A stretch of DNA of 64,000 nt, taken from the NCBI GenBank assembly GCA_964642855.1, contig CAZXSK010000011.1:10042-74041 (forward strand), read 5' to 3'. Under the pieces are notes generated by a model, which was given only the letters and a program-made list of their open reading frames with translations, did not search any database and was not told the origin of the DNA. Shown one piece after another: positions 8,758 to 62,417 of the stretch; position 1 is the stretch's first letter; each line of letters opens with the position of its first letter. The position numbers were made by a program, and so were the translations under genes. The stretch is from an uncultured Planctomycetaceae bacterium (lineage in GTDB: Bacteria > Planctomycetota > Phycisphaerae > SM23-33).

Positions 8758-8771
8758 GGGTCACCTCCTGG

Positions 8772-9845: not shown

Positions 9846-9854
9846 TCTCCTCGA

Positions 9855-11654: not shown

Positions 11655-11687
11655 GACAAGCCTCTCCTGTCAGATCTGCCTACGTCG

Positions 11688-12338: not shown

Positions 12339-12913
12339 CTCCTGCTTCGTTCGAAGAAGATGGACATCGTGAAGGTTGCGCTGACATACCCGGCCGGCCT
12401 CCCACGACCGCCTGCGGCAGATAGGTTGATCTGTGTGACACGGGTGATGCGAGGCTGGTTTTCCAAGGCCTGCAGGAAGGAGTACAACCCCATGAAGTCT
12501 CCCTCCAACTGGACGACGATGGGCTGCTCAGAATGCCTGCCTCCCGCAGCCAGTCGCTTTCCCGCATTGCCTGTCTGGGGTCGGATACTCTTGGTCCGAA
12601 GATCGTTGGCCTCTGCCAGAAGCCAGATCTCCTTCAGGACCTTGTCGATTTCCTTTTCACTGGGCAGTTTCGAGCGGAAGAATGCGATCGCGCCCTCAAG
12701 CTCCCCGATCTCCCCCTTCAGATTGCCTATGGTCGCCGTGGCCCGGTTCAACTGTGCCAGTCGGACCTGTTTGGCCTCGATCTGCCCCATCATCTCCTTG
12801 TTGCGAGCGTCCTGAGGGCGAAATACGAACTGCCACGCGCCTACCGGGATGGCCAGCAGCATCGCGATGAAAACAATCTCTCGGATTCCGAACTTCATTC
12901 CTCTGCCCCCCAT
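12335..12913 (-). CDS. pilO: type IV pilus assembly protein PilO
   Basis: N-terminal TM helix, a coiled-coil, then a PilO-like C-terminal domain (EIDKVLKEIWLLAEANDLR...). Operon position is after pilN. Confidence 0.7.
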   Translation of the reverse strand: MGGRGMKFGIREIVFIAMLLAIPVGAWQFVFRPQDARNKEMMGQIEAKQVRLAQLNRATATIGNLKGEIGELEGAIAFFRSKLPSEKEIDKVLKEIWLLAEANDLRTKSIRPQTGNAGKRLAAGGRHSEQPIVVQLEGDFMGLYSFLQALENQPRITRVTQINLSAAGGRGRPAGYVSATFTMSIFFERSRR

Positions 12914-13605
12914 GCCTTGACCAGTGCCACCTCCGTCAACGAAGGCGAGTGATCGTTACTGGCTTGGATTGCTTCGATTGCGTCCATGCCCGGCTTGATC
13001 GTCATTTCCAGATGGAAGGATCGGACGGAATTCTCCTCGCTCCGTTTGCGGGCTTCGACGCTGTAGATCAGGTCCACGCTGTCGACGAGGGGGTTGTTCC
13101 GAAGCCGGGCGATATAGAGAGCGACCTCCACGTCGGTCTTCGCCTGGCCGTAGATCGTGATGTCCACGGAGGGACTGAAGCTCTTGACCGTTGGCCCAAG
13201 TGATTTCTTGCCTCGGGCCGGCCTGCGACGGGCTGTCGCCTTTCCGTTGTCCAGGATCACCCGAAGAAGGGCAACATTCTCGGGGCGTGCATTGGTGATA
13301 AAGCCGATCAGGTAGCTCCTTGGAACCCGTTCCATCAGCGCCGAGGTGTTCTCCGCCTTGGCGATGAGCTTCTTCTTCTGGAGCTCAAGTTCCTGGAGTT
13401 GATCAATCAGCGATGCAGCGCGGGCATATTCTTCGCTCACTCGTGCGGCAATCTGCTTCGTCCTTCGCGTCTTTGCTTCGGAGACAATGGCCGCTCCGCC
13501 TACCGCAGCCATCACCACCACAAAAAGCACAAAGCAGAGGACGTTCGCACGTCGCTGTGCCCTGCGTTTGGCATAGTCTTCCGGAATCAGGTTCACTGTA
13601 CTCAT
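12895..13605 (-). CDS. pilN: type IV pilus assembly protein PilN
   Basis: The N-terminus MSTVNLIPEDY is the INLLP motif typical of PilN, followed by a TM helix and a coiled-coil. It follows pilM. Confidence 0.75.
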   Translation of the reverse strand: MSTVNLIPEDYAKRRAQRRANVLCFVLFVVVMAAVGGAAIVSEAKTRRTKQIAARVSEEYARAASLIDQLQELELQKKKLIAKAENTSALMERVPRSYLIGFITNARPENVALLRVILDNGKATARRRPARGKKSLGPTVKSFSPSVDITIYGQAKTDVEVALYIARLRNNPLVDSVDLIYSVEARKRSEENSVRSFHLEMTIKPGMDAIEAIQASNDHSPSLTEVALVKAWGAEE

Positions 13606-13620
13606 GCTCGCCTCTCTAGC

Positions 13621-14703
13621 CTATGCCGCCTGGGCCGCGCCGAGGCACAGGCCCACGGCGACTGCAAACCGCGGCTGGGGAATCGGCTTCTCATCCGGTC
13701 CGGCAGGTGGCTTGCCCGGCTGGTGCACACGGGCAAGCGGATCGCCGATCTGGGCCGGAAGATGCATTCGCTTGGCGATCGCCTGGCAGAGCTGACGGTC
13801 ATTTGCCTGACCACCGACGAATACCGCTCGCTCGACGCCCTGATTCTTGAACACCGACTCGCAGTATCGAAGACACTGGGTCAGTTCGCTGCCGAATGCG
13901 GTCAGTGGTTCCTCGAGATAGCCCAGAAGATCCACTACCGGAGCTTGGGGATCTGCCTGCAACTGCGTTCGTCGAAGCTGCCGGGCCTGATCGATGGAAA
14001 TCTCCATGCCCTTCGACAGGGCCTGAGCAAACTGGTCGCCGCCGATCTGAAGATTGTGCGCGAACAGGATCTGCGTTCCTCGCGCCAGAACCACCTGGGT
14101 AGTTGCCTCGCCGATGTCGACGAACAACTTCGGCTGATTCGCTTCGGCCTCAGTACCGACCTTCGAGAAGCACTCGGCGATTGCGCACGGCTCGACGTTG
14201 ACTGCTATGGGATCCAGCTTCGCCCGTCTGCAGAGTTTCAGGTAGGCATCCACGCGGTCGCGCGGGGCCGCGATCACAATCGCCTCCTGACTGGCTTCGC
14301 CTTCTTCGCTGTACACGTCCCCGGCGACAAAGTGTCGAATGACCGCCTTGGACAGTGGGAAGGGGACTTTCTCACCGATCTGCGACTCCAGCGTCTGCTC
14401 GATAGGCAGCTTCGAGTTCTTCGGGATCCGGACCGGGTGGACGAACGTGTCGTCGGAAGGGAGCGAGATGGCGCATTCCGTACCCTCAAACGGGTGTGTC
14501 TGCATCAGTGACCGGAGCGTCTCGGCGAGGTAGCGGGTGCGAAGCTTGAAGTCTCTTCGGCATGGGTGGGGAATGTCGGAGGTAGCCAAAGCTACGAGTT
14601 CAAGCCCGCTTTCCCGTTGGCGGAGTTGCACCATCTTCAGAGAGCTGGTTCCAAGATCCAGCCCAATGGGCAGAGCGTTATTGGAGGATTTTCCAAGTGC
14701 CAT
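13621..14703 (-). CDS. pilM: type IV pilus assembly protein PilM (actin-like ATPase fold)
   Basis: The N-terminus ...PIGLDLGTSSLKMVQL is the actin/FtsA-like phosphate-1 motif characteristic of PilM. It is the first gene of the operon. Confidence 0.85.
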   Translation of the reverse strand: MALGKSSNNALPIGLDLGTSSLKMVQLRQRESGLELVALATSDIPHPCRRDFKLRTRYLAETLRSLMQTHPFEGTECAISLPSDDTFVHPVRIPKNSKLPIEQTLESQIGEKVPFPLSKAVIRHFVAGDVYSEEGEASQEAIVIAAPRDRVDAYLKLCRRAKLDPIAVNVEPCAIAECFSKVGTEAEANQPKLFVDIGEATTQVVLARGTQILFAHNLQIGGDQFAQALSKGMEISIDQARQLRRTQLQADPQAPVVDLLGYLEEPLTAFGSELTQCLRYCESVFKNQGVERAVFVGGQANDRQLCQAIAKRMHLPAQIGDPLARVHQPGKPPAGPDEKPIPQPRFAVAVGLCLGAAQAA

Positions 14704-24750: not shown

Positions 24751-26313
24751 ATGGGATTCGATCTGACACACTTTGATGATTCGCAACTCCAGGTGGACTA
24801 CCTGGAGCATCTGGTGGACCGAAACGCCGCCGAGCGGGCCACAGCCATGAACAGGCTGTGGCAGTACTATCGCAACCCCCAACTGCCCGCCCCGGCGGCA
24901 CAGACGGACCCAGCCGGTACCGCGCGGCCTTACCGTCAGGCGCAGGAAGCAGGTCTTCCCCCTCGCATTACCGGCGACCGCGACGGCCTGTACGGCGGAC
25001 ACTGCCGCAAGGAAGTCGTCATCGAGAACGACATCGCCTGGCGGGTTCACACCATGGTCGACTACCTGTTCGGTACACCCCCGACCATCCGTTCGCTGGC
25101 CTGCAAAGGAACCCGGGCGTTGCAGATCGAGCAACTGATCTCCGGCGCACTGGAAGCCTCCGGCGGCGCCCGGTTGCTGCACGAACTGGCCGTCTTCGGG
25201 GCGGTGTATGGGTTCGTTGACATTGCACTCCGAACACCGGCCGGGGGGCCGGAGGACAGCGCCTCCACCCCGTCCCCCGCCTCCGGCCCGACCTCGGTGT
25301 CGAACCCCCGGCCGGTCCTTCCTTCCTCTGTCGATCCTGGAAAACGGTCGGACGAGGTCTTCCGCCGTGCAATGGCAGCCGTTCGCGCCCTGCAACTGGA
25401 GGCCGTCGAAGCTCCGCGCGTGGTGCCCGTACTCGAAGAGAACGACTATCGCCGGGTTCGCTACTGGATCCAGCGATACGTCAAACCCACCACCCGCATG
25501 AAGCGACGAACGCCCCGCTGGTTCCGTCTGCCGTGGACGCAGGCCGGGGGGGGAACACCCCAGGAGGTCGAGGTCGTCGAAATCCTCGGAGCCGGCTGGT
25601 GGCAGAGGTACGAGAACCGCCTGCTGGTCGAAGAAGGCCCAAACCCCCTCGGGTGCATCCCCGTGGTGCACATCCAGAATCTCTCACAGCCTTGCAGTTA
25701 CGCCGGCACGAGCGATGTCGAGCCCCTGATCCCCCTGCAAGACGAACTCAACACCCGCCTCTCCGACCGTGCCAGTCGGGTGACGTACCAGTCGTTCAAG
25801 ATGTACCTTGGCAAGGGGATCGACGACTTCCTCGAACGCCCCGTCGGGCCGGGGCAGATGTGGTCGACTTCCAATCCCGAGGCAACCATCGAGGAGTTTG
25901 GCTCCGACCAGGGCTCGCCCAGCGAGGACAGTCACATAGCCCAGGTGCGCGAAGCCTTGGACAAGGTCTCCGGGGTCACGCCTCTCGCGGCAGGACTGAT
26001 CCGCGGAAACGTCGGAAACCTCAGCAGCGCCACGGCCCTGCGTGTGCTGCTCAGCGGTCTGCTTTCCCGGACGGTGCGCAAGCGCGAAACCTTCGGCCAA
26101 GGCCTGGCAGAAATCGCGTCGCTGGTCCTGCACTGGCTGGATGTCTCAGGCATCTATCACACACGTCCCGACGAACGGCGCGTGGAGATCCACTGGCCCA
26201 GTCCGGTACCGGCCGACGAGGGGGAACAACTCCGTAACGCCCGGATCAAGGCCCAACTGGGCGTGCCCACCGAACGCATTCTTGCGGAGCTAGGGTACGG
26301 GGACATGTCCTGA
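24751..26313 (+). CDS. phage portal-like protein (first gene of phage-like structural module)
   Basis: 520 aa, acidic. It sits immediately upstream of the scaffold-like and capsid-like genes, which is the canonical portal position. There is no Walker A, so it is not a terminase. The assignment rests on position and size rather than a motif. Confidence 0.45.
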   Translation: MGFDLTHFDDSQLQVDYLEHLVDRNAAERATAMNRLWQYYRNPQLPAPAAQTDPAGTARPYRQAQEAGLPPRITGDRDGLYGGHCRKEVVIENDIAWRVHTMVDYLFGTPPTIRSLACKGTRALQIEQLISGALEASGGARLLHELAVFGAVYGFVDIALRTPAGGPEDSASTPSPASGPTSVSNPRPVLPSSVDPGKRSDEVFRRAMAAVRALQLEAVEAPRVVPVLEENDYRRVRYWIQRYVKPTTRMKRRTPRWFRLPWTQAGGGTPQEVEVVEILGAGWWQRYENRLLVEEGPNPLGCIPVVHIQNLSQPCSYAGTSDVEPLIPLQDELNTRLSDRASRVTYQSFKMYLGKGIDDFLERPVGPGQMWSTSNPEATIEEFGSDQGSPSEDSHIAQVREALDKVSGVTPLAAGLIRGNVGNLSSATALRVLLSGLLSRTVRKRETFGQGLAEIASLVLHWLDVSGIYHTRPDERRVEIHWPSPVPADEGEQLRNARIKAQLGVPTERILAELGYGDMS

Positions 26314-26366
26314 CCCGCTTCGCGCAAGAAGACCACCCAGACAGAAGTCACAGAAAGGAAACCACC

Positions 26367-26951
26367 ATGTCGGATGAACTGCGCACAGACTGCGAGCAGA
26401 AGGCGCCGGAGGCTTCCGAGCCCCAGGCCAGTCAGGACAAACTCGTGCCCGTCAGCGAGTCGATCAAGTACCGCCGCCGGGCCCAGCAAGCGGAAGGGGC
26501 CGCCGCAAAGCTCCAGCAGGAACTCGAAGATCTCCGCGGAGAACTGCAACAACGAGACGAGCAACTCGCACAGGCCGACGCCATGCGAGACGAAGCGTCC
26601 GGTCGCCTGCAGGCCTTGGAGAACGAGCGTCAGGCGGAACGGCTTCTTCTTGCGTCGGGCGCTACCGATACCGAGACGGCGCTGGTGCTACTCGGTCGGC
26701 GGCTGGACCTGAGTGGTGAGTTCGAGCCGGACGAGCTTCATCGGGCCGTTGAGCAACTGCTGGTCGACAAGCCCAGCCTCTGCGGCCGTGCTGTCGGCGC
26801 TCTGCCGTCGGCGACGGCGTCTGCTTCCGCCCAGGCAGGCGGTCCTGCCATGCAGCTCACCCAGGCAGCCCAGCGTGCCTCGAAGACGGGCGACCGACGC
26901 GATGTAGCTGAGTACCTCCGTCTGCGGCGGAGGGCATCGGCCTCGACCTGA
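26367..26951 (+). CDS. phage scaffolding-like protein (coiled-coil, Q/E/R/A-rich)
   Basis: 194 aa. Heptad-like stretch LQQELEDLRGELQQRDEQLAQADAMRDEASGRLQALENERQAERLLL. Located between the portal-like and capsid-like genes. Confidence 0.4.
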   Translation: MSDELRTDCEQKAPEASEPQASQDKLVPVSESIKYRRRAQQAEGAAAKLQQELEDLRGELQQRDEQLAQADAMRDEASGRLQALENERQAERLLLASGATDTETALVLLGRRLDLSGEFEPDELHRAVEQLLVDKPSLCGRAVGALPSATASASAQAGGPAMQLTQAAQRASKTGDRRDVAEYLRLRRRASAST

Positions 26952-27071
26952 CCCAGCAGGGCACGTCCTGAGCATTGCGCGGTGCGATGACTCAGCCCCC
27001 GGCAGCAGCCGGACGGAGGAACACAATACCACCCCGCGGGAACAAAAGCCCGCCAGAGACAGGAGAACACC

Positions 27072-28232
27072 ATGGCCTTTACGGGCAAAGCAACCTATGA
27101 CGCCGGCAGCGCCCTGCCGGAAATCGCAGAAGACGTGGCCGACCTCGTGAGCATCGTCTCACCGTACGAGACCCCGCTGCTGGATCACTTCGGTGACCCG
27201 ACCCGCCCGGCTACGAGCACCTACCACGAATGGATCGAAGACCAACTGCTGCCCAACAGCGACACCATCGACCAGACGTCGTGGTCCGATGCATCGGCCG
27301 ACGCCACGTTCGGCGTGGACCACGTGTCCTACTTCCGCGTGGGCGACCAGGTCCGGCCCAACGGCAGCAGCGAACTGCTGCTCGTGACGGCCGTCGATAC
27401 CGCCACTGACCAGGTCACCGTGGTGCGTGGCTACGGCGGTACCACGCCCGAGGATCTCACCGACGGCCAGACGCTGCACATTCTGGGCAATGCTGCCCTG
27501 GAAGGCGACGACGCTCCCGAGGCGCGGTTCTCTACCCGCGTGCGGAAGGGCAACTGGACGCAGATTTTCACCGCCGGCGTTCGCGTCAGTGGGTCCGACC
27601 TGGCCGTCAAGAAGCTTTCGGTGTCCGACGAGCTGGACTACCAGAAGCAGGAACGCCTGCGGGAACTGCTTCGCGATCTGGAGAGCACCGTCATCAACGG
27701 CGCCGCACCGGAGAGCACGCCGCAAGGCTCATCGACCGTTCGTCGCACGATGCGCGGGATCATTCCCTCCATCAACACCAACGTGTTCCAGCCCGGCGTC
27801 GACAGCGTGCCCGGAGGCGGGGACCTGTCCGAATCGCAGCTGAACTACTGCCTGCGACGCATCTGGGAGCAGTCGTCCAGCCGCATCGACACGATTGTTG
27901 TCAACGGCTACCAGAAGCGACGGATCAACAGCTTCGTGCTTTCCTCCCGCAGCTTCGGGTCCGAGGACGAGCGGTTCGTGGACCTGGTGAACATCTACGA
28001 GAGTGACTTCGGCGTCTGCCGGGTGATTCTCTGCCGATCGATGCCCGCAGACAGCGTCCTGCTGCTCGACAGCTCGCGTGTCAGCGTGCTGCCCCTGGCC
28101 GGGCGAAGCATGCAGTACAAGTCGCTGGCGTCGACCGGTGACTACGAATCCGGCGAAGTCCTCGGCGAGTACACCCTCGAGCTTCGCAACGAGAACGCCC
28201 ACGGCCTGATCACCGGCCTGGACATCAACTGA
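27072..28232 (+). CDS. phage major capsid protein-like (HK97-fold-like, inferred)
   Basis: 386 aa, AGGAGAA Shine-Dalgarno sequence. Size, position after portal and scaffold, and composition are typical of major capsid proteins. No maturation protease gene is present, which fits a scaffold-dependent capsid. Confidence 0.5.
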   Translation: MAFTGKATYDAGSALPEIAEDVADLVSIVSPYETPLLDHFGDPTRPATSTYHEWIEDQLLPNSDTIDQTSWSDASADATFGVDHVSYFRVGDQVRPNGSSELLLVTAVDTATDQVTVVRGYGGTTPEDLTDGQTLHILGNAALEGDDAPEARFSTRVRKGNWTQIFTAGVRVSGSDLAVKKLSVSDELDYQKQERLRELLRDLESTVINGAAPESTPQGSSTVRRTMRGIIPSINTNVFQPGVDSVPGGGDLSESQLNYCLRRIWEQSSSRIDTIVVNGYQKRRINSFVLSSRSFGSEDERFVDLVNIYESDFGVCRVILCRSMPADSVLLLDSSRVSVLPLAGRSMQYKSLASTGDYESGEVLGEYTLELRNENAHGLITGLDIN

Positions 28233-28304
28233 GGTCCCTGACCCGACGTGCGCCCCGGAGCGTTTCCGGGGCGCACCGGGCGCTTGCATACGCGGAGTAT
28301 CGAC

Positions 28305-28958
28305 ATGGAAACCTATTGCCAGGATCGCGACCTGTTGCGGCTGGAACCGACGCTGTTCCTCGCCGGCGGCGCCCCGGGACAGGAACTGACGCGTCACGAC
28401 GGCGTCGACGTCAGCGGGACGACCCTTACCTGCAGCTCCGCCGACTTCACCGAGTCGGGTATTGCGCCAGGAATGGTCGTCACGCTGTACACCGACCATC
28501 CCGGAGAAGGCGTCGGGCTGGAGATCATCTCTATCGATGGCCCGACCCAGCTGACCGTTTCTGTACTTCGGCCCCGGACCGACCTGCCTGCCATCCCGCC
28601 CCAGCCATGCACCGACGCATCGCTCCTCGTCCATACCTACCAAGCCCAGATCCAGGCGGTCAGCAGCAACCTGGGTGAGAAGCTCCGCACGCTGGCCGAA
28701 GCCGAAGGGGTCGACATATCAGACTTCGGTCCGTCGTGGCAACTCACGCATGCGGTCACCTGTGGCGTGCTGGCAGAGGTCTTCACCAGCCGCGCAGAAC
28801 AGGGGCAGGTCGACGACACGACGTGGCTGAAAGTTCGCCACTACGGCGACGAATTCCGGCGGTCTCTCGTCCAGATCCGACTCACCGTGGACGCAAACGG
28901 TGATGGCATCGCCGAACGCACTCGTTCGCTGGGCAATGTCCGCCTCCGGAGGACGTAG
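28305..28958 (+). CDS. phage-like structural protein (head completion/connector candidate)
   Basis: 217 aa. ATG at 28305 after GGAG. It immediately follows the capsid gene. Confidence 0.45.
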   Translation: METYCQDRDLLRLEPTLFLAGGAPGQELTRHDGVDVSGTTLTCSSADFTESGIAPGMVVTLYTDHPGEGVGLEIISIDGPTQLTVSVLRPRTDLPAIPPQPCTDASLLVHTYQAQIQAVSSNLGEKLRTLAEAEGVDISDFGPSWQLTHAVTCGVLAEVFTSRAEQGQVDDTTWLKVRHYGDEFRRSLVQIRLTVDANGDGIAERTRSLGNVRLRRT

Positions 28959-28960
28959 TC

Positions 28961-29389
28961 ATGTCTGGCCTCTATGATCTGCTGGCCAATATCCTCGGGG
29001 TGCTCCGGAGTGTTCCTGACCTCCGCGCGGTCTCGCTGGCCGGTGAGCCGACCAGCCGAGAGGTGCCCCGTGCCTCGGTGGCTGTGCTCTCGCGCGAGAC
29101 CTTCCCCCCGGATGACTCCGCGACGGGGATCTGGCATCGCACGACGATACGCATCGCGATCGTCACCAACGCGGGACGCACCGACGCGGGCCTCGCAAGA
29201 CTCTCCGAACTCGCTGAAACCGTTGCCCAGGCTCTTCTCGGCGACCCGCACCGGGGCGGAACCTGCAGCGACCTGCCCGTCGGGAGGGCGACCGAGATCG
29301 AATGCTTCGAGACCCTCGACGTCGACGAGCCCGGACGCGTGGCCGTGACCCTGGTCGTTCGAACGCACAGCGAAAGCGAGGTGGCGTGA
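28961..29389 (+). CDS. phage head-tail joining/tail-completion-like small protein
   Basis: 142 aa. GGAGG 6 nt before the ATG. Size and position are typical of head-tail adaptor proteins. Confidence 0.45.
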   Translation: MSGLYDLLANILGVLRSVPDLRAVSLAGEPTSREVPRASVAVLSRETFPPDDSATGIWHRTTIRIAIVTNAGRTDAGLARLSELAETVAQALLGDPHRGGTCSDLPVGRATEIECFETLDVDEPGRVAVTLVVRTHSESEVA

Positions 29390-29793
29390 TGGCCCGCTAC
29401 AGCCGCATCGAGTCCGTCCAGTTCGATGGCGTGGTGCTGCCCCTGCCGGTGTCGGTGAAGACCAACCGTTCGGCTGCCGTCGCGCCGCGGTGCGACGACA
29501 CCCGTCTTCACGAGTCCAGCGTACAACTGCACGACGCTTGGGTAACGGCCGAGTTCACCTGCCGAGGCCTGGCCGTCGCCGACAGCCTGTCTCTCGGTCA
29601 ACAGGGCGACTGCGTGATCGATCTTCGCGACGCTTCCGGCTCAGGAGGGAGACGGATGACGCTTCACTCCGCCGTCGTCGTGGACATCCGGACAAGCTGC
29701 GACCAGCGCCAACCGGCGGAGACCGTCGTGCGACTTCGCGCCCAGGCCGACGATGTTCACACCACCCCCTACCAGACGGAGGTGACGCCATGA
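29389..29793 (+). CDS. phage-like small structural protein
   Basis: 134 aa. ATG overlaps the upstream TGA as TGATG. Confidence 0.4.
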   Translation: MARYSRIESVQFDGVVLPLPVSVKTNRSAAVAPRCDDTRLHESSVQLHDAWVTAEFTCRGLAVADSLSLGQQGDCVIDLRDASGSGGRRMTLHSAVVVDIRTSCDQRQPAETVVRLRAQADDVHTTPYQTEVTP

Positions 29794-30155
29794 TCCTCTT
29801 CGACCAGCAGGACCTGTACTCGTCGGGGCCCGCGTCGCTCCAGCCGGACAGTTGGCAGCGGCAGACGGTCCGAAGGGGCTTCGCCGGCCAGGATGGCGAG
29901 TTGCTGCTCGACCTCGGCCGCCGGTCGCGCGCGATCGTCCAGACCGGCCGGTTGCAGGCCGACACAATCGACGCTCTCGATTCGCAGATCCAGGCTATCG
30001 AAGCCGCCGCCGATGGCGACGTCTGCACGTTGACCGGTCCACACGGCCGGGAATTCCCCAACACCATTCTCGAAGGGTTCTCGCTGCAGACGCCCGTTCG
30101 CACCGGCCGGGGGCTGTGGTGCGATTACCGCATCGAATACAGGCAACTGCGATGA
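29790..30155 (+). CDS. phage-like small structural protein
   Basis: 121 aa. ATGA start/stop overlap with the upstream gene. Confidence 0.4.
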   Translation: MILFDQQDLYSSGPASLQPDSWQRQTVRRGFAGQDGELLLDLGRRSRAIVQTGRLQADTIDALDSQIQAIEAAADGDVCTLTGPHGREFPNTILEGFSLQTPVRTGRGLWCDYRIEYRQLR

Positions 30156-30886
30156 CGCCCGAACTGCACACCGACGATATCCGCCTCCTTTCGGCCACGC
30201 CGAACGGCAGCCCGCCGGGTTGGCTTTTTGAGTACGAGACCGGCCACGCCAGCCGCGCCCACCAGCTGTACGTCGACGGGCGCCTGGCAGACTGGGCCCA
30301 GCCGGGGGAGCCTCGCACGTTCTTCCTGCCCGACACATCCCGCGCCGCACGGATCACCGTTGTCGCCGTCGACGTTCCCTTCATGCGGCGAGACCTGTCC
30401 CGGTTGCTGCCGCCTTACGCAGCAGCGCCGACATGGACGAACGGGTACCTCCTGACGCGCGCCCCGACCCTTCGCGACGGCGACCAGGTCGCGATCCTCG
30501 CGCGAGAGCAAGGCAGCGACCCGTCGGCCGACACCGTCGTCGACCGACAGATCGCCTGGCCTGCAGATCGGCCTCGGTGGGCGTTCGGCGAGGACGCCTT
30601 CGGCCGGGGAGCATTTGGCTGGGGCGGCTCGCGGGCGCCCGGCATGGGCGAAGCGCACTTCGGCGCGGGTCCGTTCGGCTTCGACGAAGCCGGCCTGTCG
30701 CTCGTGGCGGATCTGCAGGAATCAGGCCGATACGTCCTGACCCCCGCCAGCCTGTCCATCGACGGCACGATCGTTCGCGCCGACCCGCAGACCGTGGACG
30801 TCGAGCTGCCGCCCCCGCCGGGGGGCTCTCTCTCCGTGACGGACTACGACTCCCAGACCCGAACCATCACCCTTTCCCTTTCCTGA
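30152..30886 (+). CDS. phage-like structural protein with Gly-rich segment
   Basis: 244 aa. ATGA overlap with the upstream gene. Contains FGRGAFGWGGSRAPGMGEAHFGAGPFGFD. Confidence 0.45.
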   Translation: MTPELHTDDIRLLSATPNGSPPGWLFEYETGHASRAHQLYVDGRLADWAQPGEPRTFFLPDTSRAARITVVAVDVPFMRRDLSRLLPPYAAAPTWTNGYLLTRAPTLRDGDQVAILAREQGSDPSADTVVDRQIAWPADRPRWAFGEDAFGRGAFGWGGSRAPGMGEAHFGAGPFGFDEAGLSLVADLQESGRYVLTPASLSIDGTIVRADPQTVDVELPPPPGGSLSVTDYDSQTRTITLSLS

Positions 30887-30894
30887 GGAACACC

Positions 30895-31728
30895 ATGACT
30901 GAACTCTACCCGACCGACGCCGACCTCAACGCCCTGTCCGGGGCCACCGATCCCGAGCAGGAAGTACTCTTCCTGCCCATTGGCGAGTCGCCGTATCACA
31001 CGAGCTTCTACCGAATGCTCTACCGGCTGCTGGACGTCTCCCGCCGGGCCGGCGACCTGCGCGTGTACAAGGACGGAGATCTGACCTTCGGCGTCAGGCC
31101 AGGTCGCTGGATGAACGGCCAGGCCGAAGTCGTCTACGTCGGCAGCGAAGCCAATGCGCTGGCCAATAACCTCGACAATTACATCTACCTGCTGCCGGAC
31201 GGGACGCTCACGACCAATACCACCGGCCTGCCCGATCCGGTCGACCAACCCCACCTGCCCCTCGCGAAGATCTCCACCAGCCTGGGCACCTACGCCCACG
31301 GCGACATCACCGACCTGCGAGGCCGGGCGCTGTACCGCCCGTGCGGCGGGCTTGTCGGCGACCTGGAAGCCCAGGCCGTCTCCCTCATACCGACGCTGTC
31401 GATCACCGCAGCCGCCGAAGTGTCCGACGTGCGAACCCTCTCGGTGCAGGTCTGCGACGCTGCCGGCTCGGACCAGGCTGGACGGTTCGTGATCCGCACC
31501 TGGTTGGCGGAGTCCGAGTTCGCCGCCCCGTCGGCGACGGGCAACAGCGTAGCCGTCTCGGCCGGGTCTGCACTTCGCCAGATCCAGGCCAATGCGGACT
31601 ACGAGCTGATCAGCGACAGTTCCGGCCTGGTCTCGCTCGATGTCACCATCACCTCCACCGCCACCCGCTACCTCATGGCCGAGATCGACGGGAAGATCTA
31701 CTCCAGCGGCCCGGTGGATTGGGCGTAG
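30895..31728 (+). CDS. phage-like tail/structural protein
   Basis: 277 aa. GAGGA before the ATG. Ser/Thr/Ala-rich beta-type composition. Confidence 0.45.
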   Translation: MTELYPTDADLNALSGATDPEQEVLFLPIGESPYHTSFYRMLYRLLDVSRRAGDLRVYKDGDLTFGVRPGRWMNGQAEVVYVGSEANALANNLDNYIYLLPDGTLTTNTTGLPDPVDQPHLPLAKISTSLGTYAHGDITDLRGRALYRPCGGLVGDLEAQAVSLIPTLSITAAAEVSDVRTLSVQVCDAAGSDQAGRFVIRTWLAESEFAAPSATGNSVAVSAGSALRQIQANADYELISDSSGLVSLDVTITSTATRYLMAEIDGKIYSSGPVDWA

Positions 31729-31753
31729 CCCCCGCTTCCGAAAGCGACTCAAC

Positions 31754-33874
31754 ATGACCATCTATCATCACATCGACAATTCTGTTCCGGACTTCGGTGA
31801 GTGGGACTCCGTCACCGGCGCCTCCTCGGGGGTGTTGACCCAGACGCCGGATGCAAACTGGCCGGAGCAGCCCGGCATGGGCCTGCGGATCGACACGGCA
31901 GCGCAGGCAGTCGCCCACGCCGACAAGTCACTTGGGCTTACTCTTGCACCGGGCCAGCGGCTTACGTGGACCTTCTCGCTCAATGCACACGGAAGCATTT
32001 CACTGGCTGTGTTCGCTATTCTCACGGCGTCGGCGAGGACAGCCCTCTGCGTGCTGCAGGAGCTCGGAAACCAAGTCCGCTTCAGCGCAGCGAGGGATCC
32101 CGGTGGGTACGAGGACCTCGTCGCCGACGTGCACGTGGGATGCTGGCACCGGTTCTCGCTGAGTATCCGCAGAGCATCCGCGCCCGGGGTAGCAGACGGG
32201 GAAGTCACGCTCTGGCAGGACGGCGTCGTTCGGGATCATGCGAGCATCGAGAACTACAACAGCACGAGCGGGCTTCTTGCGCTGACGTGCGGCAATCTCG
32301 TGGCCGTCACCGCAGCAACGGAACTCGACATCGACGACCTGGTCTTTTCCGATGACCGGCCATCGCCCGGGTCTTCTTCCACAGACATCAGCGCCCCATC
32401 GACCTACGGCACCATCCTGCTTATTCCCGATTCCGAGCAAGGCTACCTCTTCGGCGAACAGTGCGCACAGATCGCAGGCGTTCCGCGGGCGAACATCCTT
32501 CATCTCCCGGGGCTGTCGACCTCGGAGCAGCTTGCCTCCTACAGCGACTTCCAGCAGCAGGTCGAAACGCCACTGGCGGAGTTCTTCAGCAACTGGCCCG
32601 ACCTCGCCGACCGCTGCTGCTGTTTCCTGCTCGGACCGGGCGTGCCCGGGTCTTTTCTGCACGAAGGGGTCGCCCACTCCACCGCTTCACGATTGATGCG
32701 CTTTGGCCAGCCGTTTGTCGGAAGCGTCGCGAACCCGCTGATCTGCTTGCCTCTCGGGCGTCTCGACCCCGCGACGCTTCGATCGCACGGGATCCATCTC
32801 GCCGCCCGGATCGACGGGCCCACCTTCAGCGAAGCGTGCGATCTTCTCCACCGAGGGGTGGACTGCACGTCCGATGCGATCCCGCAGGACAACCGCTTCT
32901 GCTGCGACGATGGAGACGTTCGCGCGTCCCTGGCCGCCCAGGCGCTCCGACTTGACGCGGACCCACTGGACCTCCTTGAAAACGACGCGATCACCTGGAC
33001 GCAGACCGACCCATCGGGCTGGGGAGAAGGCGGCGCCCGCGCCCTGTTCGCCGATCTCCGGGCTGGCTCGCTGACCGCGCTGCGAACGACCTCCGACGCC
33101 GTCAGCGATGCGATCCACACGCGCGGATACGCAGCGGGGGTCGGATCCGTCGGAGCTGCCCTTGCACTCGACCCCCACCGATTCCTGACGATGTTGCATC
33201 TCGGGGCAACCCTTGCGGAAGCGGCGGCTGTTTCCTCGCCGACGCTCGATGACGGACTGGTGCTGGCGGGGTATCCGATGGCGACGCCGCAACTTCCCCG
33301 AGGCGGGGCGACGATCTACCGCGGCAGGGGGTCGATCCGCCAGGTCGATTGGTCCCAGCCTGTGGCCTATCTGCGGGAGGGCCAGACGCAGGTCACGCTG
33401 CCCAACCCGCTGGATGGCGCCGGCGACCACGTCCTTGCCGCCCGCCGCGTGTCGCAGGCCGGCCTGGAGGAGCAAAGCACCCACGTTGTCGCCATCGCCC
33501 GCATCGACGAAGACGGCCAGTTGCTTCCGCCACCGTTGCCCGTGCCGGCCGACCTGTCGTTCACCCCGCTTTCCGCAACGTCGGGGCTTTTGCACTGGAC
33601 GAACCAGTCGGAGCCGGGCTTCGCCTTGCCGGACGAATACCAGGTTCTGGCAGCCAATCGGGCGGACTCGCTGGCCGGCAGCGACCCTGTACTCACCGTA
33701 CCCGGTTCCGAGAGCGCCCCCTTCCTGGTGGCTGAGCTGGACCCGCTGCCAGAAGGTCCCTGGCTTGCGGTCCGTGCCGTCGCCCAAGGCCGAGCCGGGC
33801 GTCTCAGCAAGCCGCTGCGAATCCAGGCCAATCCGACACTGCCCGCACCTGCAAGCCTTGGAGGTCCCTCATGA
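31754..33874 (+). CDS. large phage-like tail fibre / receptor-binding-like protein with C-terminal fibronectin-III-like domain
   Basis: 706 aa. The N-terminal region resembles a concanavalin/LamG-like jelly-roll (EVTLWQDGVVRDHASIENYNSTSGLLALTCGNL). The C-terminal about 100 aa (DLSFTPLSATSGLLHWTNQSEPGFALPDEYQVL...) fit an FN3 pattern. Confidence 0.5.
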   Translation: MTIYHHIDNSVPDFGEWDSVTGASSGVLTQTPDANWPEQPGMGLRIDTAAQAVAHADKSLGLTLAPGQRLTWTFSLNAHGSISLAVFAILTASARTALCVLQELGNQVRFSAARDPGGYEDLVADVHVGCWHRFSLSIRRASAPGVADGEVTLWQDGVVRDHASIENYNSTSGLLALTCGNLVAVTAATELDIDDLVFSDDRPSPGSSSTDISAPSTYGTILLIPDSEQGYLFGEQCAQIAGVPRANILHLPGLSTSEQLASYSDFQQQVETPLAEFFSNWPDLADRCCCFLLGPGVPGSFLHEGVAHSTASRLMRFGQPFVGSVANPLICLPLGRLDPATLRSHGIHLAARIDGPTFSEACDLLHRGVDCTSDAIPQDNRFCCDDGDVRASLAAQALRLDADPLDLLENDAITWTQTDPSGWGEGGARALFADLRAGSLTALRTTSDAVSDAIHTRGYAAGVGSVGAALALDPHRFLTMLHLGATLAEAAAVSSPTLDDGLVLAGYPMATPQLPRGGATIYRGRGSIRQVDWSQPVAYLREGQTQVTLPNPLDGAGDHVLAARRVSQAGLEEQSTHVVAIARIDEDGQLLPPPLPVPADLSFTPLSATSGLLHWTNQSEPGFALPDEYQVLAANRADSLAGSDPVLTVPGSESAPFLVAELDPLPEGPWLAVRAVAQGRAGRLSKPLRIQANPTLPAPASLGGPS

Positions 33875-35607
33875 GCTGCACCTGGACGCTGCCGAAGATC
33901 CCGATCACCGCGACGGTCCTTCGTCCGCTTCCGCCGCGTATCCTCGTGGCTGGCCGCAGGCGATATGACCTGCAGGCACTCGGATGGCGGGTCGAAGGCC
34001 CCCCGCTGTTCGGACAGGCCGAGATCGTTCTGCGTTCGCCGCTGGCTGCCGGCCGAGACGTCCGGCTGGAGCAGGCGCACCGGTTGCCGGCAATCGGGGA
34101 AGAAGTCGTCCTGCTTCCGGGCGATCGGCAGGACTCGTGGCGCTTCCCCGGCATCGTTGTCGAGCACCGAACCGGTATCGACGACGGCGAGCGATTGGTC
34201 GCCGTGCTCAAGCATCGCCTGGGTGTGCTGCTGGACATTCATGCGATCGGCCGATGGGTTCAGACTCCCGCCGGCCCGGTCGACCGATCGGACCTGCCTC
34301 TGCACTTCAACACCGGCCCGGAGACACTTGCCACCCCGGACGTCCACGAGACCTCGTCAGGCAGAGTGACTCGAAGGTTCACCTCCGCCCCTGAAGGTAC
34401 GCGATGGACATTCGCCGATGCACTGTCCTACGTGATCGCTGTCTTCGTGCCCGAATCGGTCGACGTGCCTTCCCGCGAAGAACTGCTCGACCTCTGTGGC
34501 CGGCGCGAACTCCTGCCTGCCCGCTTTGAGGGGCGGGGTCTCTGCAGCGTGCTGGAAGAACTCTCCGCAAGGGCGGGTTTGGTCCTCCGTGGTTCACGAA
34601 GCGGCCGCGGCCTGGTGATTCACAAGGCCGGCGAAGGCCGAACGCGCCAGGTTCGGCTGCAGGCTCCCGGGGGCGACTTTCACCCCTCCACGACCAACCT
34701 GTGGAAGGCGGAGATCGTCACGCGCACCCGCCCTCGAAAGCCCGGCGTATTGGCCATCGGGCAGAAGAAGCGATTCGAAGTGACCCTGCAACTCCAGCCC
34801 GGATGGGATCCGTTGGACGAGACCTCGCGATGGCGCGATACGTCGCGGGAACTCGCCTCGCCCGGCGCCCGGCTGGAGTCTGTGTACAGGCGATGGGTGC
34901 TCAACGAGCACGGAGCGTACAGTCGGCCTCCGCTGGCTCTCGATGCGACTGACCTGTCGACGATCTCAGCGGAGGACTTCCAGGAGGTCAAGGCCAGGCG
35001 ATGGCTTCCGTGCATCTCGTGCGATGCGCTGGGACGGTCGCTCGGGGTCGTCGTCGAGGTCAGCACCGATGGCGGTTCGACCTACGCCCCCTGGCCGGGA
35101 CGCGTGCGCGTGTCCCGCGAGCAATGCGCCATCTTCCTGGACGATCCGTCGCTGCCCGCCGACTACTTCGCCGCGGCCGTCGAAGGGCTCGTCCGGGTCC
35201 GTGTCACCGGCTGCCTGGAAGGCGACCTGCCGCTGATCTGGCACGAGCCCGGCCGGGACGGCGACGGAGTCGAAATCCTGCGTGACCAGGAGGCGCGTTG
35301 GGCTGCGGTGCATTCCAGCAGCATCTTCTCCGGCGAGGGCGCCGTCGGGCCGACAGATCAGGCCGATGACACCGGGCGACTGCAGGATCTGGCCGCGGCC
35401 TGTGTTGCCGATCAAAGCGAACGGTCCCGTTCGTCCTTGACCCTCGGCTGGGTCGACGGCGGTTACCACGTCGGCGACATCATCGAACGTGTCGAGGGCA
35501 GATCCCTCGACCTGCCCTCGGCACGCGGAGCCGGCGGGCGGATCGTCGGCGTCCGTCACGTGTGCGGCGACACCCAGACCACCACCCTCATCGTGGAGCA
35601 AGCATGA
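33871..35607 (+). CDS. large phage-like tail/baseplate-like protein
   Basis: 578 aa. ATGA overlap with the upstream gene. No enzymatic motif was recognised. Confidence 0.5.
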   Translation: MSCTWTLPKIPITATVLRPLPPRILVAGRRRYDLQALGWRVEGPPLFGQAEIVLRSPLAAGRDVRLEQAHRLPAIGEEVVLLPGDRQDSWRFPGIVVEHRTGIDDGERLVAVLKHRLGVLLDIHAIGRWVQTPAGPVDRSDLPLHFNTGPETLATPDVHETSSGRVTRRFTSAPEGTRWTFADALSYVIAVFVPESVDVPSREELLDLCGRRELLPARFEGRGLCSVLEELSARAGLVLRGSRSGRGLVIHKAGEGRTRQVRLQAPGGDFHPSTTNLWKAEIVTRTRPRKPGVLAIGQKKRFEVTLQLQPGWDPLDETSRWRDTSRELASPGARLESVYRRWVLNEHGAYSRPPLALDATDLSTISAEDFQEVKARRWLPCISCDALGRSLGVVVEVSTDGGSTYAPWPGRVRVSREQCAIFLDDPSLPADYFAAAVEGLVRVRVTGCLEGDLPLIWHEPGRDGDGVEILRDQEARWAAVHSSSIFSGEGAVGPTDQADDTGRLQDLAAACVADQSERSRSSLTLGWVDGGYHVGDIIERVEGRSLDLPSARGAGGRIVGVRHVCGDTQTTTLIVEQA

Positions 35608-36161
35608 CCGATATCGATCCATACACAGACCGTCTCCAGTGGCTTGCCCAGGCAGGCGGCGTTCGCGGCGTGCAACTCGTGCGCATCGGCGAGGTCGACA
35701 GCGGCAACTGCTACCAGGCCCAACCCGCGGAGTTCGACTCGTCGGGCGAGCTTGCGACCATCGACGGGTCGACGCTGACGGTGACCAACATCGCCGAGAC
35801 GCCGGACAGCGCAGGCCAGGTTCCCGCCGGCAGCCACGCATGCGCCGTCGACGTCGAAGGCCGGTGGATCGTGCATCTCTCGCCGCCATCCACCAGCGTG
35901 TTCCCCGCGAAGGTGATCTCCGCCGATGGCGGGGCGACCTACACGGTTCGCGAGCAGCAGATAAGTGGTACGGACACGTTGTCCGACGCAGCCGGGGCCG
36001 TTGATGTCCCGGCACGCAATCTCTCGGAACTCACCCTCGGGCCCGGGGGGGCAGTCGATGTCGGCGCGATCGTACTGGTCTGCCCGAGACCCGACGCAGC
36101 CAGCCCCGCGACGCTTCGGTACCTCTTCGACCATCCCGTCTACGCCAGGTACCTGGACTGA
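35604..36161 (+). CDS. phage-like structural protein
   Basis: 185 aa. ATGA overlap with the upstream gene. Confidence 0.45.
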   Translation: MTDIDPYTDRLQWLAQAGGVRGVQLVRIGEVDSGNCYQAQPAEFDSSGELATIDGSTLTVTNIAETPDSAGQVPAGSHACAVDVEGRWIVHLSPPSTSVFPAKVISADGGATYTVREQQISGTDTLSDAAGAVDVPARNLSELTLGPGGAVDVGAIVLVCPRPDAASPATLRYLFDHPVYARYLD

Positions 36162-36164
36162 CCC

Positions 36165-37202
36165 ATGACCTATGACCCGACATGGAGCCAGGGCGACGCC
36201 ACCGGCCTGCAGGGCGGGGTACATTCCGTCCGCGCCACGGACGTCGGCGAGATCGCAGCTGCGATCAACCGCAGGCGGGAACTGACCTACCAGGACGCGC
36301 AGGACTACTCCGGCGGGATCCAGGCCGGCAGGTGGATCGACACGTCCGTGATCGATGCAGCCACAGCTCCGCCCTTCGAGAACCTGCGAAGCTCGTGGAC
36401 GAGCGACATTCTCTCTGCGCCCGTGGGCACGCTGGGGGGCAACCCGCCGTCGCCGACATGCATGGACTGGCTGTGGCCTGTCGCTGACGCGGACGAGGGC
36501 AAGGTGATCGTCGCCTCTGCGCCCGGGGCAGGGGAGGTCGGGCTGTTCGCAAAGATCAACGGCGGCAGCGACTGGACCGACCCCACGCTGGCGGCCGGGC
36601 AGACCGCCGTCCGGACGGTGCACGTCAACGAACTCCGCGATGCAGCTGCGATTGTCTCTCGCGGCCGGTGGACGCTCCCTGTGTACCTGGCCGGGGGGAT
36701 CTTCTCGATCATGCCCGACACGCCGTGGATCGGAGACTCGGTCGCCAACAACGGCAGCGACGAACTCCGCGCGGTCGGCTTTGCCTGGCTGCGGTCGCCG
36801 GCCACGCCGTCGCAGGGGCTTGTGAACGTGACCGTCCGCGACGCCAGCGAACTGGAGCTGACCGCGTCGGACGACTGCAGCCTGGCTATCTACCGGTGCT
36901 GTCGCGCCATCGATTTCCTCGCCGACCCGCCGACCTGGAACGAGTATGCCCCGTTGGGATCATCGGCGTGGGCTTTGCCTGGCGGAACGGGCGCGGGCGA
37001 TGCGGTCTACCTCGGGCAGGTCTCCTTGGCGGCCGGGGTGCCGGGCACGCTGAGCAACTCCGCACTCGCCCTGGGGCTGCAGGCGATGGTGGACGGCGAG
37101 CCCCAGAACTTCCTGATCCGTCGGACCGACGCCAGCCCGGACACCATCGACGTATCGGCCACCGCACGAATCGAATTCGACTTGAACACACCCCCTAACT
37201 GA
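36165..37202 (+). CDS. phage-like structural protein
   Basis: 345 aa. Starts 4 nt after the upstream stop. Confidence 0.5.
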   Translation: MTYDPTWSQGDATGLQGGVHSVRATDVGEIAAAINRRRELTYQDAQDYSGGIQAGRWIDTSVIDAATAPPFENLRSSWTSDILSAPVGTLGGNPPSPTCMDWLWPVADADEGKVIVASAPGAGEVGLFAKINGGSDWTDPTLAAGQTAVRTVHVNELRDAAAIVSRGRWTLPVYLAGGIFSIMPDTPWIGDSVANNGSDELRAVGFAWLRSPATPSQGLVNVTVRDASELELTASDDCSLAIYRCCRAIDFLADPPTWNEYAPLGSSAWALPGGTGAGDAVYLGQVSLAAGVPGTLSNSALALGLQAMVDGEPQNFLIRRTDASPDTIDVSATARIEFDLNTPPN

Positions 37203-37215
37203 GGAAGGAGCAACC

Positions 37216-37488
37216 ATGGAACCGTTGACAGGAATCACCGACTTTGCAGGACTCGGAGCGGCCGGGCTGATGGGAGCGATGTGGCTGTGGGAGCGAAAGC
37301 TCAGCCGCGACCGCGACCAGCAGCTCGTGCAGTCTCACGAGCGGATCATGCGGGACGAGCAGCGGCTCGACAAGCTCACCGAGGTCGTCGAGCACAACAC
37401 CACCGCGCTGACGCGGTTCGAGGAGGTCCAGCGGCTGCAGACCGACGTCCTGCAGCACATGCTCAAGGAGCGCGGCCATGTTGCGTAG
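37216..37488 (+). CDS. small single-TM coiled-coil protein (holin- or i-spanin-like candidate)
   Basis: 90 aa. Strong GAGGAAGGAG Shine-Dalgarno sequence. One TM helix (GLGAAGLMGAMWLW) followed by a charged coiled-coil. Confidence 0.45.
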   Translation: MEPLTGITDFAGLGAAGLMGAMWLWERKLSRDRDQQLVQSHERIMRDEQRLDKLTEVVEHNTTALTRFEEVQRLQTDVLQHMLKERGHVA

Positions 37489-37972
37489 GCGACTGCTTGT
37501 CTGTTCGTCGTGGGTCTGCCTGCTGGCCGGGTGCGGCGCGCCTCCGGCGACGGTCGATCTGCTGTCGGTCGCGCGGGAGGGTGTCGCCCGGGCAGGCGAC
37601 CAGCAGGAGCAACTGCACGAGCAGAAAATCCGTCAGCTGGAGGGCAATTTGGACGCCCTGGACCGCGCATTCGACGCCGACGTGCGGCTGGTTGCTTCCG
37701 GCGGGGTCACCGCTGCCGACGGCGAGGTACTGGAATTGACGCCCGAGTGGGTGATCTCGTCCCGCAAGGGCTACGCAGCCGGGCGGTCGATCATCCAGGA
37801 GCAGATCCGCCGGGAACTGCAGGACCACGCCCTTCGCCGGGAGAACCTCCACGCGGTCGACGACGCGTTGGAGATGGCCCGGAGGCTGCTTGTCCGCCAG
37901 CAGTTGCTGCTGGGGCGGATGGGCGTTTCGTGGGAGCGGCTGGAAAGGAGGATCCGCGATGACCAGCGATGA
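37478..37972 (+). CDS. small lipoprotein (o-spanin-like candidate)
   Basis: 164 aa. Lipobox LLAGC. Overlaps the upstream gene by 11 nt. Coiled-coil-rich. Confidence 0.45.
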   Translation: MLRRRLLVCSSWVCLLAGCGAPPATVDLLSVAREGVARAGDQQEQLHEQKIRQLEGNLDALDRAFDADVRLVASGGVTAADGEVLELTPEWVISSRKGYAAGRSIIQEQIRRELQDHALRRENLHAVDDALEMARRLLVRQQLLLGRMGVSWERLERRIRDDQR

Positions 37973-38225
37973 CTTCCCCCGCCGTATCGTTGCCCTCGCC
38001 GTGGAGCGTGCCTGGGACCAGTGGGCACGCGAGCACCCGTCCCTGGCTGCGGCGCTTGACGACGTGCAGTTGATCAACCAGGCAGCCGAGTCGGTCCGCC
38101 ACACTCCCGCCTACCGCCGCGCGGTCGAGACGTTCCACCGCGACGAGCAGACGCTGATGCTCTTCGAGCGTCTGTGGAGCCTGGCCGGGCCGGCGGTTCG
38201 GGAGCTTCTCAGCGCAGCCGGATGA
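37959..38225 (+). CDS. small hypothetical protein, last gene of phage-like module
   Basis: 88 aa. ATG at 37959 overlaps the upstream gene's 3' end. Confidence 0.35.
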   Translation: MTSDDFPRRIVALAVERAWDQWAREHPSLAAALDDVQLINQAAESVRHTPAYRRAVETFHRDEQTLMLFERLWSLAGPAVRELLSAAG

Positions 38226-57247: not shown

Positions 57248-57286
57248 GGCTGCAGCCGAACCGGTCGCCACAACCGGAGACATGAC

Positions 57287-59572: not shown

Positions 59573-59629
59573 CCTTGGCCTCGCGAGGCCGGGCCTGGGT
59601 GGTGTTTGCGAAGCTGACAGGAGCAAGTC

Positions 59630-60985: not shown

Positions 60986-61114
60986 GATAGATGACCTGCT
61001 TGACCCGGGCGGCATCTGGGGCGTGGGATTCATGCACGATCCGGCCGCAGATTCACGAGCCAACGGCCGATAAATAGAATGTAGCCAGCCGTCACCGAAC
61101 GCGAGGGAACGCCC

Positions 61115-61717: not shown

Positions 61718-61718
61718 C

Positions 61719-61750
61719 GGCCTGACCGTCCCGGCCTGACCGTCCCGGCC
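61719..61750. repeat. 14-nt tandem direct repeat GGCCTGACCGTCCC x2.3
   Basis: Exact copies at 61719-61732 and 61733-61746, plus partial GGCC. Located between the PEP-CTERM gene stop and the truncated glycosidase fragment. Confidence 0.8.
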
Positions 61751-61753
61751 GGA

Positions 61754-62365: not shown

Positions 62366-62417
62366 CGTTCGCCGTCGCCAGGCCGGCTGTCCGCCCGGTC
62401 GGGCTCCTCCGGCGCGG

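Follow-up and report, generated by a model that had tools for sequence, protein, structure and literature searches.

Two neighbouring genes of a chromosomally fixed head-tail cluster in Phycisphaerae: a predicted, sequence-divergent tail hub and a multi-domain candidate tail-tip protein

Tail-tip proteins decide which cells a phage or a gene-transfer particle reaches. Hubs of the gp27, Mu gp44 and P2 gpD type, together with the N-terminal module of siphophage Tal, VgrG and Afp8, share one fold in long-tailed phages, contractile injection systems (CIS) and the type VI secretion system (T6SS), and the hubs of all solved relatives are trimers, which seal the tail channel at its end and bear the other tip proteins. 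Carbohydrate-binding decorations of the tail tip are known as ‘evolved’ Dit proteins with insertions of carbohydrate-binding modules (CBM) and as Ig-like/fibronectin type III (FN3) domains on phage structural proteins. In the gene transfer agent (GTA) RcGTA, with its hub g13 and megatron g15, the distal-tail hub protein is encoded in a head-tail cluster inherited vertically at a fixed chromosomal locus. In this work we have analyzed two adjacent genes, designated A and B, in a 64,000-nt stretch of DNA (the window) from an uncultured Planctomycetaceae bacterium of the Phycisphaerae (GenBank contig CAZXSK010000011.1, positions 10,042 to 74,041). We consider it rather probable that their products are neighbouring distal tail-tip components of a phage-derived particle with structural genes fixed in the Phycisphaerae chromosome, and that in this particle a pair of FN3-like domains in A docks, the N-terminal part of A serves as an optional adhesin and B forms the core hub.

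31754-33874, + strand: gene A, 706 aa; putative four-domain tail-tip protein (LamG-like, TIGR03790/gingipain-fold and two FN3/Ig-like domains)
33871-35607, + strand: gene B, 578 aa; predicted baseplate hub protein
33860-33874, + strand: GGAGG (33860-33864) and ATGA stop/start overlap of A and B (33871-33874), read from the sequence

Both open reading frames (ORFs) have the lengths given in an earlier note on this DNA, which had also proposed their translational coupling through the ATGA overlap, and this description holds. Gene A begins with ATG at 31754, behind the TAG stop of the preceding gene (31726-31728), and ends with the stop codon at 33872-33874; gene B extends from the ATG at 33871 to the stop at 35605-35607, with GGAGG placed 6 nt before its ATG. 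The starts appear sound because the N-termini align with those of the homologues, which have the consensus MxLLxYIDNEVP for A and MxTxTLP for B. The 4-nt overlap was found also in six other loci (L001, L003, L011, L016, L019 and L021; related loci carry L numbers throughout). Direct annotation of either protein with Pfam, PHROGs, NCBIfam and PDB sequences gave nothing usable.

For B no Pfam, PHROG or NCBIfam match was found, and thus no membership of a curated hub family such as Phage_GPD. A word-indexed homology search recovered four relatives only, and a profile of 35 sequences returned the same five proteins; the sole PDB sequence matched by this profile was Afp8, with an E-value of 0.2 and over the N-terminal region. 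The protein was modelled from an alignment of five sequences, with a mean pLDDT (predicted local distance difference test) of 58.8, the model being confident mainly over residues ~20-265, where most blocks reach 80-94, and unreliable after residue ~265. Within the confident part the tube-like beta-barrel domains of the hub fold are present; the structural matches include AlgoCIS and other CIS spikes, and the top match is the hub of the Anabaena myophage A-1(L).

33928-34665, + strand: B residues 20-265, gp27 / Mu gp44 / VgrG-type hub fold in the model
34681-35424, + strand: B residues 271-518, best-conserved region with motifs RRWVLNE, LGVVVE and VRVTA (from the conservation profile; pLDDT below 50)

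B thus shares the hub fold with the systems named above, but differs from them in belonging to no Pfam or PHROG family, in an identity of at most 15% to any solved hub, and in a strongly conserved region of ~250 aa of its own (residues 271-518), which bears the family signature RRWVLNE and has no Pfam, PHROG or PDB-sequence match. Nor was a tape-measure, tube or spike gene recognised beside B. Conservation peaks at about residues 300-460 (PGWDP, RRWVLNE, LGVVVE, VRVTA) and is lowest in the N-terminal 160 residues. As judged from the model, B adds a new and divergent sequence, with a conserved domain that is unexplained, to a hub fold class that is very well known, and it is this ordinary fold that anchors the reading of a cluster otherwise almost unrecognisable by sequence.

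A word-indexed search with A returned only A itself. In an exhaustive HMMER search of 1.84e9 representatives the family comprised 288 representatives at the 50% identity level, 79 of them at E < 1e-30, and about 50 homologues are full length (700-725 aa, 30-36% identity). A represents a new, unannotated family without a Pfam entry. Its AlphaFold2 model, built from an alignment of 42 homologues, has a pLDDT of 91.2 and a predicted TM-score (pTM) of 0.86 and consists of four domains.

31754-32353, + strand: A residues 1-200, ConA/LamG-like beta jelly roll
32396-33283, + strand: A residues 215-510, alpha/beta domain of clan CD (gingipain) fold, diverged relative of TIGR03790
33296-33529, + strand: A residues 515-592, first small beta-sandwich (C1); model strands 518-584, present in all short forms of A
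33536-33823, + strand: A residues 595-690, FN3-like beta-sandwich (C2); seven strands in the model, 599-684

The jelly roll is of the ConA-like superfamily, and the family profile matched glucuronan lyase 2zzj (E 7.4e-6), a CBM40 lectin domain (7e-5) and a pentraxin (1e-3). Its matches among the predicted viral structures of BFVD are LamG/ConA-like domains of ~200 residues in phage virion proteins, on which, to judge by the names of the matches, LamG-like domains are widespread. The A protein of the window stays below the gathering threshold of Laminin_G_3, only PF14099 being hit, at 15.4 bits against a cut-off of 29.9; Laminin_G_3 (PF13385) is on record for a distant member of the A family (P0128) as well as, in L055, for a neighbouring gene. 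Residues 1-205 contain no His or Gln that reaches 80% conservation; the conserved set consists of D8, E10, R39, R45, Y55, W75, W131, R140, D148, N167, D194 and E195.

The middle domain has the caspase/gingipain alpha/beta fold of clan CD (C25). Since it scores 16.8 bits with TIGR03790 (E 0.004) against a curated cut-off of 67, it is a diverged relative of that family and by the curated rule not a member; at the equivalent position more distant A relatives reach 70.9 bits (P0113) and 64.4 bits (P0108). TIGR03790 has no known function, and the searched library contained no literature on it. The catalytic His-Cys dyad of clan CD is missing: among 43 full-length homologues neither a Cys nor a His of residues 215-510 attains 80% conservation, the best-kept Cys residues being C237 (33/43) and C288 (26/43), and the expected dyad positions, mapped by motif analogy and not by structural superposition, are occupied by Y/P (295) and D (354). 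An active cysteine peptidase was rejected for this lack of a dyad. Strongly conserved residues of the domain are S309, R313, N327, R336, D354, R399, R444 and E489.

C2 has the seven-strand sandwich of a fibronectin type III domain together with FN3 sequence similarity, its family profile matching an FN3 domain of contactin-5 (E 7.7e-4, residues 599-703), although Pfam fn3 gave no match at threshold in A. Mean pairwise identity per domain is 0.32 for the N-terminal domain, 0.41 for the middle one, 0.40 for C1 and 0.31 for C2. The earlier note was right in seeing a LamG-like N-terminus and an FN3-like C-terminal segment of about 100 aa, but it overlooked the gingipain-fold domain of ~300 aa and the first sandwich. 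Its statement that neither protein carries a hydrolase or depolymerase motif is true at the level of motifs, yet of the two best fold matches one is a polysaccharide lyase and the other a cysteine peptidase. For the whole architecture of A, including the combination with the gingipain fold, no counterpart was found among the best BFVD matches. The search for A relatives also brought up a giant protein of 4975 aa (P0153) in which ten stretches match A residues 512-639, so that sandwiches of the C1/C2 type also recur within one very large protein, whose place is presumably the cell surface.

Of A, the FN3 pair alone is kept universally, always encoded beside the hub gene and in most cases coupled to it in translation; the 510 aa of the N-terminal part are optional. 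Long forms of 650-973 aa were found in the window, in at least 13 further loci (L011, L012, L014, L016, L023, L024, L030, L034, L039, L043, L047, L055 and L056) and, as a 706-aa homologue, on the IMG/VR contig L008. Eleven loci (L001, L003, L005, L009, L010, L013, L018, L019, L021, L026 and L028) have short forms of 188-217 aa made up of the FN3 pair; in L001 and L003 B is preceded by a gene for 197-199 aa that align with A residues ~516-702, and in tblastn the 199-aa protein of L001 maps to 33299-33859 of the window. These two loci had suggested that the N-terminal part of A is a lineage-specific insertion, an idea rejected in view of the long forms of distant lineages. Because long forms occur in clusters of both the window type and the distant Phycisphaeraceae type, the long form is probably ancestral, the N-terminal 510 aa having been lost repeatedly in the short-form lineages.

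33278-33280, + strand: in-frame ATG (Met509) within gene A, aligned with the start codon of the short forms

Internal initiation at Met509, which would yield a nested short product, is possible and not to be put more strongly, since the column is not conserved as Met among the long forms.

The interval between B and g277, the fibre-like gene in front of A, is the variable cassette of the cluster, measuring from 0.6 to 4.3 kb across loci. Several loci with short A have a fibre gene enlarged to 525-596 aa or extra ORFs (L005 4280-6070, L018 5712-7481, L026 7644-9221 and L028 7690-9273), so that the stretch from fibre to hub resembles a cassette prone to swapping.

24751-38213, + strand: whole head-tail cluster (Pfam/PHROG matches for portal and major capsid protein, collinear tblastn matches, cellular flanks)
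30895-31728, + strand: g277, tail-fibre-like protein of 277 aa with conserved N-terminal shoulder and variable C-terminus

Genes A and B belong to a cluster of 13.5 kb with all genes on the + strand, in the order portal, scaffold, SU10-type major capsid protein (MCP), g236, g142, g135, g121, g243, g277, A, B, g185, g345, g90, g164 and g87; the portal is of the SPP1 type, the MCP matches its Pfam family at E 1e-84, and g185 (185 aa) and g345 (345 aa) lie directly 3′ of B. The other genes scanned in the window are cellular: on the left M16 peptidases, MurD, adenylosuccinate lyase (ADSL), DUF4870, type IV pilus/type II secretion system (T2SS) genes, HemN and GMP transferase, on the right LigD_N, ferredoxin, FUR, GDSL lipase, GH130, a permease and ABC transporters. 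Among the scanned ORFs of the 64-kb window no terminase, integrase or replication gene was detected.

A pattern scan for B relatives, carried out on one genome per GTDB species, found them in 46 species representatives, all of them metagenome-assembled genomes (MAGs) of Planctomycetota and mostly labelled Phycisphaerae; all organisms in which the cluster was found are known as MAGs. According to tblastn with every cluster protein of the window, the whole cluster is collinear in about 25 loci from different species, and on the contigs of the four word-index homologues of B the gene order, and the housekeeping genes that enclose it, are unchanged. ADSL stands directly left of the portal gene in L001, L003, L011, L019, L021, L025 and L026, and LigD_N on the right side of the cluster in many loci. 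All A and B relatives that were examined lie inside such clusters, in agreement with the assignment of both proteins to a phage- or GTA-like tail module in the earlier note, and the idea of cellular adhesins unrelated to phages was rejected, the context being always the cluster. Relative to L001 the housekeeping genes are 60-85% identical, the portal 60% and the MCP 74%, while B (38.5%), the matching part of A (34%), g135 (36%) and g236 (37.5%) are among the lowest of the cluster.

The ratio of nonsynonymous to synonymous substitution rates (dN/dS), calculated by the Nei-Gojobori method (NG86) in the closely related lineage of L001, L003, L019 and L021, was 0.23 for portal and MCP, 0.17-0.30 for g277 and 0.27-0.31 for B. 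Short-form A gave 0.32-0.52, the highest values in the cluster (the rest ranging from 0.17 to 0.41), and A is the fastest-evolving of the genes tested. With dN/dS of 0.17-0.52 for every gene tested, the cluster genes are maintained by selection. As in a GTA, a structural cluster under purifying selection occupies a fixed chromosomal site and lacks integration and replication genes; no terminase was found among the scanned ORFs of the window. Occupation of the same site in several Phycisphaerae species, purifying selection and the lack of a detected terminase, integrase or replication gene together suggest that the cluster is a domesticated, GTA-like element. It shares with RcGTA the features described above, but differs in having no megatron-like giant protein and no terminase found in the cluster, in the phylum of its host (Planctomycetota) and in its capsid type. 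No close free-phage relative was detected: IMG/VR contained no B relative carrying the family motif, the nearest MCP relatives there were 28-36% identical with no other gene in common with the cluster, and tblastn of A and B against 50,697 deposited phage genomes gave no match. A literature search, which did not cover all journals, found no paper from Phycisphaerae or Planctomycetes on a gene transfer agent of such kind, and nothing on phage-derived particles of Phycisphaerae appeared in the searched literature. A terminase-less, chromosomally fixed cluster is a more unusual object than the A/B pair.

The family profile of g277 matched 8kec_A, the long tail fibre gp34 of A-1(L), with residues 54-142 aligned to 59-144 (E 0.0018); this is the shoulder domain, by which the fibre is attached to the baseplate. 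The match is weak by its E-value, the arm domains of gp34 are unrelated to g277, and no sheath or wedge gene could be recognised from sequence in the window cluster. An N-terminus of ~150 aa is conserved among g277 homologues, which vary from 150 to 596 aa, some with NTNS fibre-like repeats. Going by these sequence features, g277 is a better candidate than A or B for a classical fibre or receptor-binding protein.

A second type of cluster was observed in Phycisphaerae chromosomes (L051 2375-13046; also L033, L035, L042 and L054). It runs TerL, Mu-type portal, protease, capsid, gp36, gp37-like, B homologue (731 aa in L051, 700-730 aa in this cluster type), a 158-aa protein and a g277-like fibre, and might, if a genome possesses both types, provide a terminase in trans. 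The 158-aa protein has the motif G-x-G-x-(I/L)-D-x-x-x-P-(V/L) that opens both sandwiches of A. IMG/VR contig L008 carries a tape-measure-like gene, a 160-aa gene, the B homologue, a g277-like gene and the A homologue; only here does a tape-measure-like gene lie near a B homologue, two genes before it. The 160-aa protein of L008, which stands at the Dit position, was rejected as a homologue of the FN3 pair (hhalign probability 0.3%). As the layouts of L051 and L008 show, hub, FN3 protein and fibre stay together although their order changes.

In the arrangement that we favour, the FN3 pair of A would dock on the hub or baseplate and may link trimeric g277 fibres, themselves docked through the shoulder domain, to the hub. 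The optional LamG-like and catalytically disabled gingipain-fold domains would project outward as an accessory adhesin, binding a cell-surface glycan or another anionic envelope component and so adding to, or tuning, the adsorption specificity of the fibre, with g277 as the probable main fibre-type receptor-binding protein. B would be core machinery (plug, channel opening) and not a determinant of specificity, and its conserved middle region may help to penetrate the envelope or to bind inner components of the tail. The earlier note had proposed both proteins as receptor-binding candidates; for A this is plausible given its optional and variable domains and its high dN/dS, but for B it is not, with its hub fold and its best-conserved region internal. 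A behaves as a surface or specificity protein would, with optional N-terminal domains, the greatest variability in the N and C2 domains and, for the short form, a dN/dS above that of all other genes of the cluster.

Compared with what is generally known of evolved Dit proteins, A likewise has a conserved core encoded directly upstream of the hub gene, with optional lectin-fold domains added to it, and the gene position is that of Dit, A preceding B with the 4-nt overlap and the same adjacency being found in related loci. It differs in that the core consists of two FN3/Ig-like sandwiches, without a recognisable Dit fold among the listed matches, and in that the extra domains form an N-terminal extension and not an insertion. 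With the gingipains RgpB and Kgp of clan CD and with TIGR03790 the middle domain shares the fold, but its score is below the cut-off and the catalytic His/Cys are not conserved.

Several points weigh against this arrangement. The docking role of the FN3 pair is proposed from conservation and gene order, and the likeness of the 158-aa protein of L051 to the A sandwiches (hhalign probability 79-85%) covers 25-26 columns and is not a full-domain match. The pTM of A speaks for a body that is compact, not for an arm that projects. Together with C1 the middle domain shows the highest conservation within A, as would be expected of a conserved biochemical function more than of diversifying receptor binding, and R313, N327, D354, R399, R444 and E489 could mark an active site of other chemistry. 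The model of B is poor beyond residue ~265, and as regards the tail type no tube, sheath, tape-measure or spike protein was recognised in the window cluster.

A bolder proposal, which we advance tentatively and with less than even confidence, is that A, B and the fibre gene form the apparatus for adsorption of a phage-derived particle that is undescribed, inherited vertically and conserved across Phycisphaerae, GTA-like or otherwise domesticated and without a terminase in cis, and that the A family represents tail-tip adhesins of a new class, combining a lectin with a dead gingipain-fold domain. If true, this would give the TIGR03790 superfamily its first functional context. Should the cluster make particles, A, g277 and B would be the parts to manipulate for what these particles bind and deliver.

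Of the competing explanations the strongest is that the particle is short-tailed and podovirus-like, with B as a nozzle or plug under the head-tail connector and A and g277 as side appendages; it has to be taken seriously, though on balance we think it unlikely. The SU10-type MCP, the lack of a detected tube, sheath or tape-measure protein, the small size of the cluster and the position of the L051-type B homologue, directly after head-completion genes resembling Mu gp36/gp37, are all in its favour. On the other hand, five of 25 members of the g121 family match PHROG 184 ‘baseplate hub’ (best E 1e-4) and a single member a ‘GpU-like tail protein’, so that tube-fold ring proteins may be present; L008 has its tape-measure-like gene; and g243 and g185 may encode a short tape measure and a tube protein. 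The comparison with podovirus nozzle and tail-fibre proteins of the T7 gp12 and gp17 type, recommended by the earlier note, revealed no such similarity and finds no support at the level of fold. Profile searches of g345, g243, g185, g121 and g236 against the PDB, which bear on the tail type, gave no significant match.

It is improbable, in our estimate, that the N-terminal 510 aa of A serve something other than adsorption, whether they brace the structure, act in assembly or are delivered as cargo or effector. Their optional presence, the compact predicted architecture, a middle domain more conserved than expected of a receptor-binding domain and the lack of a viral structural analogue of the whole architecture are compatible with such a role, but LamG/ConA-like domains of virions are typically carbohydrate-binding, the region is located in the variable fibre-proximal cassette, and its N domain evolves fast.

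Quite improbable, too, is an enzymatic A that clears capsule or envelope polymers for the tail tip, either by a PL20/PL7-like lyase jelly roll or by a middle domain acting as a hydrolase without Cys. The peptidase fold and strongly conserved polar residues of the middle domain (S309, R313, N327, D354, R399, R444, E489) would suit an enzyme, the nearest relative of the N-domain is a lyase, and hubs or tip proteins of related phages often carry hydrolases, as do the A-1(L) hub and the diffocin hub-hydrolase. The middle domain, however, has neither conserved His/Cys nor dyad residues at the mapped positions, and the conserved set of the N-domain, devoid of His and Gln, looks like a lectin or Ca-site pattern.

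That the cluster is a decaying prophage remnant in which A and B no longer function is highly improbable, for although it lacks a detected terminase, integrase or replication gene in the window and has no close free-phage relative, all ORFs are intact and collinear across the loci of different species, every gene tested has a dN/dS in the range given above, and start codons, Shine-Dalgarno sequences and overlaps are conserved.

The product of g243 (30158-30886) has a conserved Gly/Phe-rich central motif, GWGxDxFGxGAFGxDG...GLGxGxFGAGxFG, and no family or PDB match; a role as short tape measure or in ejection is conceivable. At the end of the cluster (37216-38213) lie three small ORFs, one of 90 aa with a hydrophobic segment, one of 164 aa with the lipobox LLAGC and one of ~75-87 aa, which are kept even in distant cluster types and, going by their predicted products, look like a holin/spanin-like lysis cassette without a recognisable endolysin.

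Elsewhere in the window a type IV pilus/T2SS set (PilM, two T2SSE ATPases and T2SSF) occupies 7531-14703 on the − strand, 10 kb upstream of the cluster; pili are common receptors of phages and GTAs. An ORF of 2356 aa on the − strand (55385-62455) overlaps + strand genes with Pfam matches and high GC3 (57287-59572 and 59630-60985) and is probably spurious, of a type common in DNA of 67% GC.

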